This document shows, piece by piece, positions 44,435 to 47,845 of a stretch of 64,000 nucleotides of DNA. Under the pieces are notes generated by a model, which made no database searches, had not been told where the DNA came from, and was given only the letters and a program-made list of their open reading frames with translations. Position numbers and translations under genes: made by a program. Source of the DNA: Myxococcales bacterium (lineage in GTDB: Bacteria; Myxococcota; UBA727; JABDBI01); NCBI GenBank assembly GCA_023248545.1, contig JAHFEF010000004.1, forward strand, positions 22,043 through 86,042, read 5' to 3'. How positions within the stretch are numbered: position 1 is the stretch's first letter; every line of letters starts with the position of its first letter.

Positions 44435-47400
44435 TTAAGGAGTCTGTAACACAGCAAGTACCATACTTGCAGCCTCGCGCACATCGACATCTGAATCAGT
44501 TAGACACGTTGCAATCTGCTTGCGAATCGTTGGATCCGTGGGCTTAATCGCACCCAGAGCCGAAATCGCATTCAGGCGCACATCGGCATTTGAATCAGTT
44601 AGGCACCCTGCAATCTGCTTGAGAATCATTGGATCCGTGCACTTAATCGCACCCAGAGCCCGAATTGCAGCCGAGCGCACAAAGGGGTCTGAATTCGTGA
44701 GTTTAATCGCACCCAGAGCCTTAATTACAACCCGGCGCACAAAGGAATTTTGATCAGCTAGGTACCCTGCAATCTGCTTGAGAATCGTTGGATCCGTGGG
44801 CTTAATCGCACCCAGAGCGTTAATTGCAACCAGGCGCACATCGGCATTTGAATTAGTTAAATACCCTGCAATCTGCTTGAGAATCGTTGGATCCGTGGGC
44901 TTAATCGCACCCAGGGCATCAGTTGCAACCCAGCACACATCAGCGTTTGGATTCGTTAGGTATGCTACAATCTGCTTGAGAATCGTTGGATCCGTGGGCT
45001 TAATCGCACCCAGAGCCACAATTACAGCCCGGCGCACATCGGCATTTGAATCAGTTAGACACAGGGCAATTTGCTGGTGAATCGTTGGATCCGTGGGCTT
45101 AATCGCACCCAGAGCCTTAATTGCACCCTGGCGCACACCGACATTTGAATCAGTTAGACACAGGGCAATTTGCTGGTGAATCGTTGGATCCGTAGATTCC
45201 ATCGCACCAAGAGCCTCAATTGCAACCAGGCGCACATCGGCATCTGAATTAGTTAGGTACCCTGCAATCTGCTTGAGAGTCGTTGGATCTGTGGGTTTAA
45301 TCGCACCCAGAGCATTAATTGCAACCTGGCGCACATCGGCATTTGAATCAGTTAGACACGTTGCAATCTGCTGATGAATCGTTGGATCCGTGGGTTTAAT
45401 CGCACCCAGAGCCACAATTACAGCCCGGCGCACACCAACATCTGAATCAGTTAGGAATGCCGCAATCTGCTGATGAATCATTGGATCCGTGGGCTTAATC
45501 GCACCAAGAGCATTAATTGCATACCAGCACACCATGGCACTTGAATCAGTTAGACACGCTGCAATTTGCTGGTGAATCGTTGGATCCGTAGGTTCCATCA
45601 CACCCAGAGCGTTAATTGCAACCTGGCGCACATCGGCATTTGAATCAGTTAGACACGTTGCAATCTGCTGATGAATCGTTGGATCCGTGGGTTTAATCGC
45701 ACCCAGAGCATTAATCGCAGCCTGGCGCACATCGGCATTTGAATCAGTTAGACACGTTGCAATCTGCTGATGAATCGTTGGATCCGTGGGTTTAATCGCA
45801 CCAAGAACACCAATTACACTCTGGCGCACATCGGCATTTGGATTCGTTAGGTACCCTACAATCTGCTTGAGAATCGTTGGATCCGTGGGTTTAATCTCAC
45901 CCAGAGCCACAATTACAGCCTGGCGCACACCAACATCTGGATCAGTTAGACACGCTACAGTCTGCTGGTAAATCTCAGAATCCGAAGGCACCGACGGTAA
46001 ATCCTCCATCCCAAGTATTGCGCCCAATCGTTCGAAAGACCTCAGTTCTTGAAGTGTACTTGGCAGGTCTTGAGCCACCAGTCGCTCTTTCACAGAAAAT
46101 CCCGATTCAAGTTTAGCTCGAACTAACTCATGGATTTTTTTCGGCAGTCTTACAGCTGCGGCATTCATAATCAGTATATCACGATTAATAATGATATCGA
46201 GATCAAATTTCTTTGCCAAATACTGGTTAAGATCTATGCGCTCAGTGCTCGCTTCTGCTTCTAACTTCCGATACAGGTCAACATGTGCCTTTCGAAAATT
46301 AGGCAGATCCAGGACTCGAAGGTTATTAGAGCGAATCACCCTGAGCTCCAATACAGTCCCTTCAGGGCGAGCATACTTGGCAGGTATCGAACGCATTTGG
46401 GCGGTATAGGTGCCCGCTCCGAAATGAGCTGCTCCCTGTTTTTTAGGGATACTGGCAATCAACCCATTTCGGATCATGGTGAGCACATATTCGAGCTTCG
46501 GTGTTCCGTGATAGAGCAGACCCTTGTCCGTATACTTCCATTGAAATTCAGCAGGACTCACTAAAAATTTATCGATGGTATGGTCGCTCACCCGACGCGT
46601 ATCGATTTTCTGATTTCGCGTAAATTCAGGAATCAGAGGCAGGTTTTTCTCATTTCTGGCCCCAAACATCGAAATCTGATGCACCAAATGTGCTATGGGA
46701 TCTCCCTCTCGAGGAACACTAAATCGATTATGCGCCGCTTCAAAACGAGCATTTCGGATCATTTCTTCAAATCGTTTCAGGGGCCTGTCACCCTCGAGCG
46801 GAATCTTTTTATTAAGTTTAGCCAATATAAGCTCTAGTTCTTGAATTAATATCTGAGCTCCCTTTGTCGACGGCTTTAGGAAGGGCAATTCTAACAGTGG
46901 TCGAAGCATCCGAATGCATTGTTCGTCTCGATTGTCTGCATGTTCTGGAGACACATACTCGATTTCGCCTTTCAAAAATCGCCCTAAAGTGCCAGGAACA
47001 CCTTCGACAAACTGAGTCCCAGAAGCAGATGAAACGGGGAAAGCGAGCCAGTCCAATGGACTACCACCTTGGCCCATAGAGCGTTCCAACTGAGCTTTGC
47101 GTTCGACAACGTCGCCCACCGGCAAAACACTTCTGGTCAGCACCGAGGTTTTGTCTGCCTGCGGCATGAGTTGGTCAGTGGCACTCTCGATAAATTGTTT
47201 GGTTATCTGCTTAATCTCTTCACGTTTATTCGGAGTGCAGCCACTCGAAAAATCGACAGAGATATCTAAATCACTCCCAATTCCTAGGGCAGATAGTTTG
47301 GGCAGGTCTTGATCTATGGGAAAAATCTCGAACAGTGCACCGGGAATAGGCTTTCGACTAGCTCCTTGAATAATGCGATTCAATACATTTTCTGTTGTGT

Positions 47401-47845
47401 CTTCTGTCGACTGTCGTTGGTGCTCATTGTAGATTTTTTTATAAATATAACTCAAAATACTTTGCACGGAAATATAGACTTTCGCGTCGGGATCTAGAGC
47501 CTGGATCTTCTTTTCAAGTTCTTCAAAAAAACCATTCCGGCTGATTTGGCCAGTTCTTGGATCGACGACATAGGGGAGATCTGACCGCCTCAAAACTGAG
47601 GCCACGGCCTCGGTCACTTTTCCTTGTATCCGCGCTGCTTTGACCGGGTCGTTGGCATGGAAGAAATTTGGAAATTCAGCTGGGATCTCGACAACCGGCT
47701 GATGGGATTTGGGGGGAGTTAATTCCAGAGGGTTTGATTCCGGAGGGGTTAATTCTAGAGCGTCTCCTTCCTGAGCCCCGGGTGCTGCCGGCCTCCGCAT
47801 TGTGTCCACTTCGGAATGATTAAGAAATCCATAAATTTTATCCAT
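44435..47845 (-). CDS. giant eukaryote-like protein: unknown N-terminal region, PARP-like ADP-ribosyltransferase core, about 16 PBS-lyase-type HEAT repeats
   Basis: 1136-aa uninterrupted ORF with no signal peptide. See sub-features. Confidence 0.8.
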   Translation of the reverse strand: MDKIYGFLNHSEVDTMRRPAAPGAQEGDALELTPPESNPLELTPPKSHQPVVEIPAEFPNFFHANDPVKAARIQGKVTEAVASVLRRSDLPYVVDPRTGQISRNGFFEELEKKIQALDPDAKVYISVQSILSYIYKKIYNEHQRQSTEDTTENVLNRIIQGASRKPIPGALFEIFPIDQDLPKLSALGIGSDLDISVDFSSGCTPNKREEIKQITKQFIESATDQLMPQADKTSVLTRSVLPVGDVVERKAQLERSMGQGGSPLDWLAFPVSSASGTQFVEGVPGTLGRFLKGEIEYVSPEHADNRDEQCIRMLRPLLELPFLKPSTKGAQILIQELELILAKLNKKIPLEGDRPLKRFEEMIRNARFEAAHNRFSVPREGDPIAHLVHQISMFGARNEKNLPLIPEFTRNQKIDTRRVSDHTIDKFLVSPAEFQWKYTDKGLLYHGTPKLEYVLTMIRNGLIASIPKKQGAAHFGAGTYTAQMRSIPAKYARPEGTVLELRVIRSNNLRVLDLPNFRKAHVDLYRKLEAEASTERIDLNQYLAKKFDLDIIINRDILIMNAAAVRLPKKIHELVRAKLESGFSVKERLVAQDLPSTLQELRSFERLGAILGMEDLPSVPSDSEIYQQTVACLTDPDVGVRQAVIVALGEIKPTDPTILKQIVGYLTNPNADVRQSVIGVLGAIKPTDPTIHQQIATCLTDSNADVRQAAINALGAIKPTDPTIHQQIATCLTDSNADVRQVAINALGVMEPTDPTIHQQIAACLTDSSAMVCWYAINALGAIKPTDPMIHQQIAAFLTDSDVGVRRAVIVALGAIKPTDPTIHQQIATCLTDSNADVRQVAINALGAIKPTDPTTLKQIAGYLTNSDADVRLVAIEALGAMESTDPTIHQQIALCLTDSNVGVRQGAIKALGAIKPTDPTIHQQIALCLTDSNADVRRAVIVALGAIKPTDPTILKQIVAYLTNPNADVCWVATDALGAIKPTDPTILKQIAGYLTNSNADVRLVAINALGAIKPTDPTILKQIAGYLADQNSFVRRVVIKALGAIKLTNSDPFVRSAAIRALGAIKCTDPMILKQIAGCLTDSNADVRLNAISALGAIKPTDPTIRKQIATCLTDSDVDVREAASMVLAVLQTP
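44438..45973 (-). repeat. about 16 tandem 93-bp (31-aa) coding repeats, many nearly identical at DNA level (HEAT repeats)
   Basis: Unit DPTIHQQIATCLTDSNADVRQAAINALGAIKPT repeated head to tail. DNA units such as ggatccgtgggtttaatcgcacccagagc recur every 93 nt. One shortened unit near 44680-44750. Confidence 0.9.
46301..46528 (-). other. PARP-like ART core, residues about 440-515
   Basis: DKGLLYHGTPKLEYVLTMIRNGLIASIPKKQGAAHFGAGTYTAQMRSIPAKYARPEGTVLELRVI, compare PARP1 [50 protein letters not shown]...GLILLGEVALG. His446 and Tyr480 are clear. The third catalytic residue is not assignable by eye (candidates in FDLDIIIN, residues 547-554). Confidence 0.6.

Follow-up and report, generated by a model that had tools for sequence, protein, structure and literature searches.

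A family of large bacterial proteins in which a PARP-like ADP-ribosyltransferase domain is joined to a divergent nucleotidyltransferase-like domain, with a probably inactive nucleotidyltransferase in one copy

The 64,000-nucleotide stretch of contig JAHFEF010000004.1 analysed here (the window) carries on its minus strand one open reading frame (ORF) at 44435..47845, which starts with ATG and encodes a protein of 1136 amino acids (aa). ORF calling, Pfam matches and a check of the coordinates divide the whole frame into a leader, a nucleotidyltransferase (NTase)-like domain, a PARP-like ADP-ribosyltransferase (ART) domain and a HEAT-repeat solenoid; all features of the protein described below lie on the same strand. 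An earlier account made from the letters of the DNA (the sequence-only reading) had assigned the PARP-like core to 46301..47845. This range is exactly residues 1-515 and stops short, leaving outside it the last two ART strands with Asp550 and Asn561 (46163..46198). The same account had placed the gene between menB and the ATP synthase genes, and this agrees with the family-model scores of menB (43562..44395; 501.8 bits against a cut-off of 380) and of atpF/F'/H/A/G, which start at 47919 on the strand opposite to the ART gene. GC content near the ART gene is unremarkable and the rest of the window is ordinary chromosome, with pheST, asnS, pyrG, murA-like, suf, atp and polA fragments.

The PARP-like domain occupies residues 424-570 (46136..46576), as delimited by Pfam, profile matches to the PDB, an AlphaFold model of the ART alone, Foldseek and hhalign. 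The stretch on which the sequence-only reading had based its call of a PARP-like ART core, KGLLYHGTPKLEYVLTMIRNGLIASIPKKQGAAHFGAGTYTAQMRSIPAKYARPEGTVLELRVI, is present in the ORF translation with His446 and Tyr480 numbered correctly, and the call itself was upheld by the profile check with PF00644 and is in line with the structure search, both of which gave PARP or ART-fold matches; those from profiles, hhalign and Foldseek are almost all to PARP catalytic domains. PF00644 scored 27.6, 28.8 and 29.0 bits (gathering cut-off 26.7; E about 1e-6) over residues 433-494, equivalent to profile positions 39-102 of 199, and nine of 15 family members match Pfam PARP at E <= 1. When a profile of 13 ART domains from the family was compared with the PDB the top 12 matches were to PARP16, PARP4, PARP3, PARP14 and PARP1. 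These matches are weak singly (E 0.014-1.3) and all of them align His446, Tyr480 and Tyr491 with the H/Y/Y of the PARPs. An hhalign comparison with the C-terminus of human PARP1 paired H446 with H862, Y480 with Y896 and Y491 with Y907 over 60 columns at 30% identity, ending before Glu988; this result is a lead only. A direct PDB sequence search with residues 1-615 found nothing, and only the family profiles gave weak matches, to PARP and to TdT.

The ART-only model (residues 424-585) was predicted with a pLDDT of 82 and a pTM of 0.79. Among the 50 Foldseek matches listed for it, 49 were PARP1/2 catalytic domains (probability 0.28-0.96, E 0.03-0.8), mostly aligned over 67-77 residues, with one alignment of 175 columns (TMq 0.44). 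The top match was PDB 9k3a_B, a 1071-residue pre-ejectosome protein of cyanophage A4 (E 0.014, 219 columns), and three family members weakly matched the Pfam ART-PolyVal model; both observations hint at a link to the ARTs of phage-injected polyvalent proteins. In this model and in a model of residues 55-600 the ART has six core strands in the order of the H-Y-E clade: beta1 (LLYHGT), beta2 (GTYTA), beta3 (TVLELRV) and beta4 (RVL), then a helical insert of ~35 residues, beta5 (IIN, with Asp550 just before it) and beta6 (ILI, with Asn561 after it). In an alignment of 155 sequences, from which all family conservation counts given here were taken, the ART motif residues His446, Tyr480, Tyr491, Asp550 and Asn561 are 86-100% conserved. 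His446 lies in strand beta1 within LLYHGTP (residues 443-449; 46499..46519), which is conserved and aligns to the H-G-S of PARPs, and is present in 153/153 sequences, its Gly in 151 and its Thr in 150. Conservation and the PARP alignments place Tyr480 and Tyr491 of the nicotinamide pocket in GAGTYTAQMRSIPAKY (residues 476-491; 46373..46420). Tyr480 is likewise found in 153/153 sequences, while position 491 is Tyr in 134/152 and Phe in 13/152 (Tyr or Phe in 147/152).

Where PARPs have their catalytic Glu, as beta5 begins (Glu988 in PARP1), the window protein has none, and the position before this strand is occupied by Asp550. This residue and Asn561 bound the segment DIIINRDILIMN (residues 550-561; 46163..46198), recognised by conservation and by predicted strands at model residues 497-499 and 503-505 as a beta5-beta6 hairpin in which Asp550 is the candidate third catalytic residue. 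Asp550 directly precedes beta5 in the predicted model and is Asp in 150/152 sequences and Asn in two; Asn561 is conserved in 151/152. The guess of an H-Y-D site made in the sequence-only reading from FDLDIIIN, which does lie at residues 547-554, fits a near-invariant Asp just before beta5. Position 555, which by eye is 'NEY'-like after PARP1 NEYIVY, was rejected as third catalytic residue, being variable across the family (E in 28, T in 28 and G in 20 of 155; Arg here). Asp550 is preferred because position 555 varies whereas Asp550 is essentially invariant and stands at the start of beta5. The ART active site can thus be read as a candidate H-Y-D site in which Asp550 would replace the catalytic Glu.

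The sequence-only reading had recognised nothing in the ~430 residues before the ART, and here it has to be revised: AlphaFold, Foldseek and the motifs of the family indicate that the first ~370 form a divergent NTase of Pol-beta type. Homologues span ~85% of residues 1-615 and the region before the ART is therefore conserved. The predicted domain covers residues 55-420 (46586..47683), with an FPNFF motif, a head and a helical neck, on the evidence of the AF2 model, Foldseek and weak TdT, NTP_transf_2 and MTPAP matches. The two-domain AlphaFold model (residues 55-600) has a pLDDT of 82.6 and a pTM of 0.83, and its top 15 Foldseek matches in the PDB are class II CCA-adding or A-adding enzymes, including 5hc9, 3h3a, 4wc2, 1vfg and 3wfq (probability 0.97-1.0, E 7e-4 to 2e-2, ~230-360 aligned columns). 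Beyond these, FAM46A was matched at E 0.03 (probability 0.89), while AadA and DrrA were not significant (E 0.26-0.5). By sequence, the family profile weakly matched TdT at the GSDxD strand (E 0.3-0.6), which aligns with the catalytic GHDVD strand of that enzyme, and among the 15 members scanned with Pfam NTP_transf_2 matched three and MTPAP-like two, weakly and likewise on the DxD strand, with no PolyA_pol match in any. An NTase-only profile of 31 sequences found no CCA enzyme and no NTase in the PDB; its top match there, a bromodomain (E 0.013), was judged spurious. An NCBIfam scan of the N-terminal 615 residues gave nothing.

The motifs that stand out in the family alignment are KVYISGGVVRSxLGYIYKK, LGIGSDLDILI, PxGDVxEY, QGGSxLDWLAFP, RGLRPLLEIPFL and KMxRNARFEGAHNRF. 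The GG of the first is conserved in 136-145/148 sequences and the next Arg in 146/149; over GG, this Arg, GSDxD and Asp245 together, conservation runs at 88-98%. The metal-binding DxD strand would be GIGSDLDIS (residues 188-196; 47258..47284), identified by conservation, by the TdT GHDVD alignment and by a strand at model residues 139-144, in which Asp192 is kept in 149/153 and Asp194 in 147/153 (with Glu in three more). A candidate third catalytic carboxylate, Asp245 (152/155), lies in VGDVV (residues 243-247; 47105..47119; strand at model residues 190-194). Asp192, Asp194 and Asp245 are all inside predicted strands, and Asp265 (154/155) and Arg312 (155/155) are conserved to a similar degree. 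A further segment, DPxKQTIRGLRPLLEIPFL, resembles the EDPLRxLRAxRF region of class II CCA enzymes by eye only. We conclude from the model and the motifs that the N-terminal region is most likely a highly divergent Pol-beta-fold NTase and do not class it as a CCA-adding enzyme; the CCA link is kept at the level of fold because the NTase-only profile matched no PDB NTase.

In the window copy the first of these motifs is damaged. Where the family has KVYISGGVVRSxLGYIYKK the window protein reads KVYISVQSILSYIYKK, with GGV deleted and the substitutions R128Q and G132S; what remains of NTase motif A, by comparison with the consensus KVYISGGVVRSxLGYIY, is KVYISVQSILSYIY (residues 122-135; 47441..47482). 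The hG[GS] nucleotide-binding loop of Pol-beta NTases, which the family has as GG followed by R, is therefore missing from this protein (YISVQSIL). The three changes cluster in motif A even though the NTase core (residues 121-360) is identical at 229/240 positions to that of the nearest relative, P0001, a protein that is 80-84% identical overall to the window protein over the N-terminal module. The NTase of the window copy is probably inactive, because the triphosphate-binding GG-x-x-R loop has been destroyed; the domain has probably been kept only as a structural partner of the ART, which looks intact. Among full-length members, multiple changes at the NTase catalytic motifs were seen only in the window copy, P0014, P0030, P0122, P0137 and P0149. 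The His446/Tyr480 pair of the ART is never lost, and the D550N change occurs in two members, both of which keep the NTase motifs. In each of nine homologues examined at their genome loci 14/14 key residues are intact. To judge by this pattern the ART can evidently be selected without NTase catalysis, and its retention where NTase motifs are lost weighs against an obligatory coupled mechanism. As a separate observation, the ART domain of the window protein is ~70% identical to that of P0001, as against 95% for the NTase core, with all catalytic ART residues kept. It would seem that the surface of the ART evolves rapidly or that a recombination boundary lies close to residue 400.

An exhaustive profile search recovered 429 cluster representatives (clusters at 50% identity) at E < 1e-3 and at least 259 at E < 1e-30. 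The two domains together make up a ~520-residue module, nearly all of the matches listed covering profile positions 2-522, and are predicted to form a single rigid unit. In nearly all members the module stands at the N-terminus, its start lying a median of 37 residues into the protein, and the part behind it has a median length of ~500 residues (up to 1566) and consists of HEAT repeats, very large ankyrin arrays or unknown repeats and sequence. A signal-peptide-like hydrophobic N-terminus is present in 87/149 members. In the window protein and P0001 its place is taken by a Pro-rich, non-hydrophobic leader, which in the window protein is not conserved among homologues, many of which have the signal-peptide-like N-terminus there. 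This leader (residues 1-54; 47684..47845), characterised by alignment, hydropathy and TRF, has no signal peptide, as the sequence-only reading had stated (best 12-residue Kyte-Doolittle window -0.13), and contains the duplicated LELTPP(E/K)S that it had described, LELTPPESNPLELTPPKS at residues 30-47, where TRF finds a 15-bp unit repeated 2.9 times (47718-47760). The C-terminal HEAT solenoid, also seen by that account, comprises ~15 units of 33 aa (residues 626-1136, 511 aa; 44438..45970; HEAT_2 E 2.2e-64) and is encoded by an array with a 99-bp period (44467..45974; TRF 12.9 + ~2 copies) whose copies match at 81-89%.

The named carriers of the family are metagenome-assembled genomes (MAGs) of Chlamydiales, Holosporales and other Alphaproteobacteria, Berkiella, Francisellaceae and other Gammaproteobacteria, and every source annotation of a member is "hypothetical protein". 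In one Candidatus Berkiella MAG two full-length paralogues stand in tandem (4073..7669 and 7905..11561 of locus L005), both with 14/14 key residues intact. Across 11 loci no conserved neighbour and no immunity, antidote, chaperone or macrodomain gene was found. PADLOC and PHROGs gave no match in the catalytic module, for which reason readings as a defence system or a phage protein were rejected, and a BFVD fold search returned nothing significant. We read the family as an unannotated group of large proteins, exported or effector-like in character, whose carriers are mainly bacteria that live inside cells or in association with protists, and the pattern fits a horizontally spread host-directed effector, not a polymorphic toxin or a defence system.

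Among known systems, eukaryotic PARP catalytic domains (PARP16, PARP4, PARP14, PARP1/2) share with the family ART the HG[ST] strand, the GxGxY strand and a second Tyr at the same Y-x10-Y spacing (Y896/Y907 in PARP1), with 27-30% identity over 60-77 residues. The family differs in having an invariant Asp, at the putative catalytic position, in place of the PARP Glu, and in the ~35-residue helical insert that separates beta4 from beta5. By sequence its ART can be aligned over the N-terminal half only. It has no PARP helical regulatory domain, WGR domain or zinc fingers, and it is bacterial and joined to an NTase domain. The class II CCA/A-adding enzymes of T. maritima (5hc9/3h3a) and A. aeolicus (4wc2/1vfg) are the best structural matches of residues 55-~400 and have in common with them a loop of GGxVR type with a helix behind it, a DxD strand, a third Asp and a helical neck after the head. 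In contrast to these likenesses, identity is 11-16%, TM-scores are low (0.2-0.37), sequence profiles do not detect the relationship, motifs B-E are unrecognisable, and in the family GG and DxD stand ~65 residues apart, separated by an extra helix and a disordered loop; in the window copy the GG loop itself is deleted.

PARP-like ARTs of the H-Y-E clade have been put forward as effectors used by symbionts and parasites that live inside amoebae, namely Tox-ART-PARP, for which the signature H, Y, K, E and delivery of PVC type are given, and LDG_5757 of Legionella drancourtii (PMC3482391, PMC3417536). The family ART is alike in clade, but no fused NTase is described for either (PMC3482391, PMC3417536), LDG_5757 having been compared by description only. 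Legionella SidE effectors also fuse an ART to a second nucleotide-processing enzyme and offer a model for coupled chemistry (PMC11696984), although their ART belongs to the R-S-E clade, their partner is a phosphodiesterase (PDE) and not an NTase, and no relationship of sequence or fold was found. In Tox-ART-HYD1 and HYD2 the third residue is likewise an Asp, and H446, R459, Y480 and D550 resemble the signature of HYD1, H,[RK],[FY],[DE] (PMC3482391). They differ in that none of 15 family members has a Tox-ART-HYD Pfam match at E <= 1 and in being C-terminal toxin tips with immunity proteins, whereas the family module stands at the N-terminus, with no immunity gene beside it. The literature searched yielded no description of an NTase-PARP fusion, and neither a PARP nor a nucleotidyltransferase is mentioned in a structural atlas of the effectors of L. 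pneumophila (PMC11696984). The novel architecture proposed in the sequence-only reading thus appears undescribed in the annotation libraries and literature searched.

The interpretation that we favour, with some confidence and with clear reservations, is that the protein is an exported multi-domain effector that recruits a eukaryotic target through its HEAT repeats and modifies it by mono-ADP-ribosylation with its NAD+-binding PARP-like domain, the NTase of the window copy being dead. After export the HEAT solenoid would bind a eukaryotic partner; His446, the backbone of Gly447, Tyr480 and Tyr491 would make up a pocket of PARP type in which NAD+ is bound; and with Asp550 as catalytic acid a single ADP-ribose would be passed to the target. 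In most family members the NTase would probably be active too. Chain elongation by PARP1 requires its catalytic Glu, and we infer mono- and not poly-ADP-ribosylation because that Glu is absent. The domain folds, the conserved motifs, the architecture of the family and its spread over taxa are shown by the analysis, while enzymatic activity, a host target and delivery to the host are inferred likewise. The pointers to an effector are circumstantial, namely the carrier taxa, the ankyrin and HEAT tails, the signal-peptide-like N-termini of homologues (not of the window copy) and the lack of an immunity gene, and they suggest that the protein is probably an enzyme which is secreted and acts on a target in a eukaryotic host.

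Several points weigh against this interpretation. The PARP sequence match is restricted to the N-terminal half of the ART (64 of the 199 positions of the Pfam model; most structural alignments extend over 60-77 residues), the ART Foldseek E-values are modest (0.03-0.8), and the proposed equivalence of Asp550 with PARP1 Glu988 is drawn solely from the order of strands. For the N-terminal domain, kinship with NTases appears at the level of the predicted fold without sequence-level detection in the PDB, and the GG-to-DxD spacing is ~65 residues as against ~10-13 in canonical NTases. The 9-bp deletion in motif A is known from apparently one MAG assembly and might represent variation within a population. 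No secretion signal can be recognised in the window protein, and family libraries applied to 36 window ORFs revealed no secretion system, five ORFs of at least 200 aa lying outside that scan. The window CTP synthase (pyrG, a single marker) is 89%, 81% and 79% identical to MAG proteins labelled Myxococcaceae, Myxococcota and Deltaproteobacteria, from which the source genome is probably Myxococcota-like rather than of a classic intracellular lineage; Myxococcota are not known to be host-associated. A chlamydial origin, which a weak DUF1539 match (E 0.04) and a homologue from Chlamydiales had suggested, was rejected in view of these pyrG identities. A eukaryotic target is less secure for such a genome than for the homologues, and the case for host targeting is weaker here than family-wide because the source is Myxococcota-like and no secretion system was seen in the scanned ORFs.

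A rival that we consider unlikely, though deserving of attention, is that host nucleic acid, for example tRNA or the ends of other RNAs, is the substrate of both domains, the NTase binding or extending the 3' end of an RNA and the ART ADP-ribosylating RNA or DNA in place of protein, so that translation is blocked. Nucleic acids are among the known substrates of several PARPs, of Tpt1 and DarT and of RhsP2-type ARTs, and NTase toxins of the MenT/AbiEii kind act by blocking the 3' end of tRNA. The nearest structural relatives of the N-terminal domain are tRNA CCA/A-adding enzymes solved with tRNA, and the two domains are always fused, both of which speak for such a role. Yet class II CCA motifs B-E go undetected by sequence, Foldseek aligns ~300 of the ~410-460 residues of CCA enzymes without establishing the tRNA-binding body and tail, the HEAT and ankyrin tails are typical of protein-protein interaction, and the conservation of the ART in copies with a lost NTase motif implies that it works without NTase chemistry.

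The same independence bears on a coupled, two-step modification with SidE-like logic (ART plus PDE), in which an installed ADP-ribose is nucleotidylated or the NTase product serves as ART acceptor. The invariant fusion, the confident fixed geometry between the domains (pTM 0.83), the coverage of both domains by nearly all matches listed and the conservation of both active sites at >= 88% in the family would all suit such a scheme. It is nevertheless quite improbable in our estimate, being without precedent and at odds with the independent loss of the motifs: six full-length members, including the window copy, lose the NTase and keep the ART, and the two with D550N keep the NTase.

No more probable is that the protein is directed at something other than a host, as an interbacterial toxin or as an endogenous regulator in or on the producer or prey. 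The Myxococcota-like source genome and the lack of a secretion apparatus among the scanned window ORFs are compatible with this, and interbacterial ART toxins of H-Y-[DE] type have been described (Tox-ART-HYD1/2, PMC3482391). Polymorphic toxins, however, carry C-terminal toxin domains and are accompanied by immunity genes (PMC3482391), whereas the catalytic module here is N-terminal and gives no Tox-ART-HYD Pfam match, and at none of 11 loci does an immunity or antidote gene stand next to it. The ankyrin and HEAT tails and the distribution in Chlamydiales, Holosporales, Berkiella and Francisellaceae point to eukaryotic hosts, as does, weakly, a nearby ORF with an OTU-like Cys motif (see below). 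That the ART is an NAD+ glycohydrolase or a non-catalytic binder of NAD+ or ADP-ribose, as its Asp in place of the canonical Glu, its C-terminal half remodelled by the helical insert and the existence of H-Y-E-fold toxins that are NADases (e.g. Tse6) might suggest, is very improbable, since H, Y, Y, D and N are near-invariant over 155 divergent sequences, which argues for catalysis, and the nearest relatives by sequence and fold are transferases.

Some of the surroundings of the gene deserve mention in their own right. The F-type ATP synthase genes are split, with atpD (beta subunit, 841 bits) at 39607..41040 (+), ~7 kb upstream of atpF/F'/H/A/G (47919..51747, +), where atpG is followed by a YbgC-like thioesterase gene and not by atpD. 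Between the two blocks, on the other strand, lie tsaE, a toxin-antitoxin pair, menB and the ART gene; the pair, a PIN (VapC-like) toxin and a Phd/YefM antitoxin (42912..43528, -), stands between tsaE and menB, directly downstream of ART-menB. A 781-aa ORF 4.6 kb from the ART gene (52468..54813, -) has an N-terminal segment, IRDTPHDGNCWITAANYLF, that aligns with the catalytic-Cys motif of human OTUB2, its only PDB matches (E 0.065), followed by what resembles a long coiled coil. The ORF has no Pfam match and is a possible OTU-like deubiquitinase effector. Further away, a 694-aa ORF (18070..20154, +) ends in a eukaryotic-type Ser/Thr kinase (Pkinase E 9e-51; a weak LegK1-like match) preceded by an unrecognised region of 380 residues. 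Five ORFs of 213-648 aa scattered among housekeeping genes (37603..39549, -; 21525..22958, +; 7685..9345, -; 31176..32165, +; 61343..62239, +) gave no Pfam match, and two of them, scanned also against NCBIfam, gave none there; additional proteins of a lineage-specific or effector-like kind may be among them.

Comparative genomics has already pointed to PARP-like ARTs in effectors of bacteria, but none of this type appears to have been characterised. The family described here is large (at least 259 clusters), is spread over unrelated and mostly host-associated lineages, and pairs its ART with a second, equally conserved nucleotide-transferring domain that annotation libraries do not recognise. 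A bolder possibility, which we rate as improbable, is that NTase and ART in their fixed geometry build one hybrid modification on a host macromolecule, either an ADP-ribose extended or capped by the NTase or an RNA end presented by the CCA-like domain and then ADP-ribosylated. If this were so, two enzymes would share in a new chemistry, on a par in novelty with the phosphoribosyl-ubiquitination of SidE, that has spread horizontally among protist-associated bacteria, and copies with a dead NTase such as that of the window would be derived single-activity versions. The family is a testable route to new host-manipulation chemistry and has a bearing on the proposal that eukaryotic PARPs originated from bacterial effectors, and the window copy, with its NTase naturally inactivated and its ART intact by sequence, would be a ready-made separation-of-function variant.

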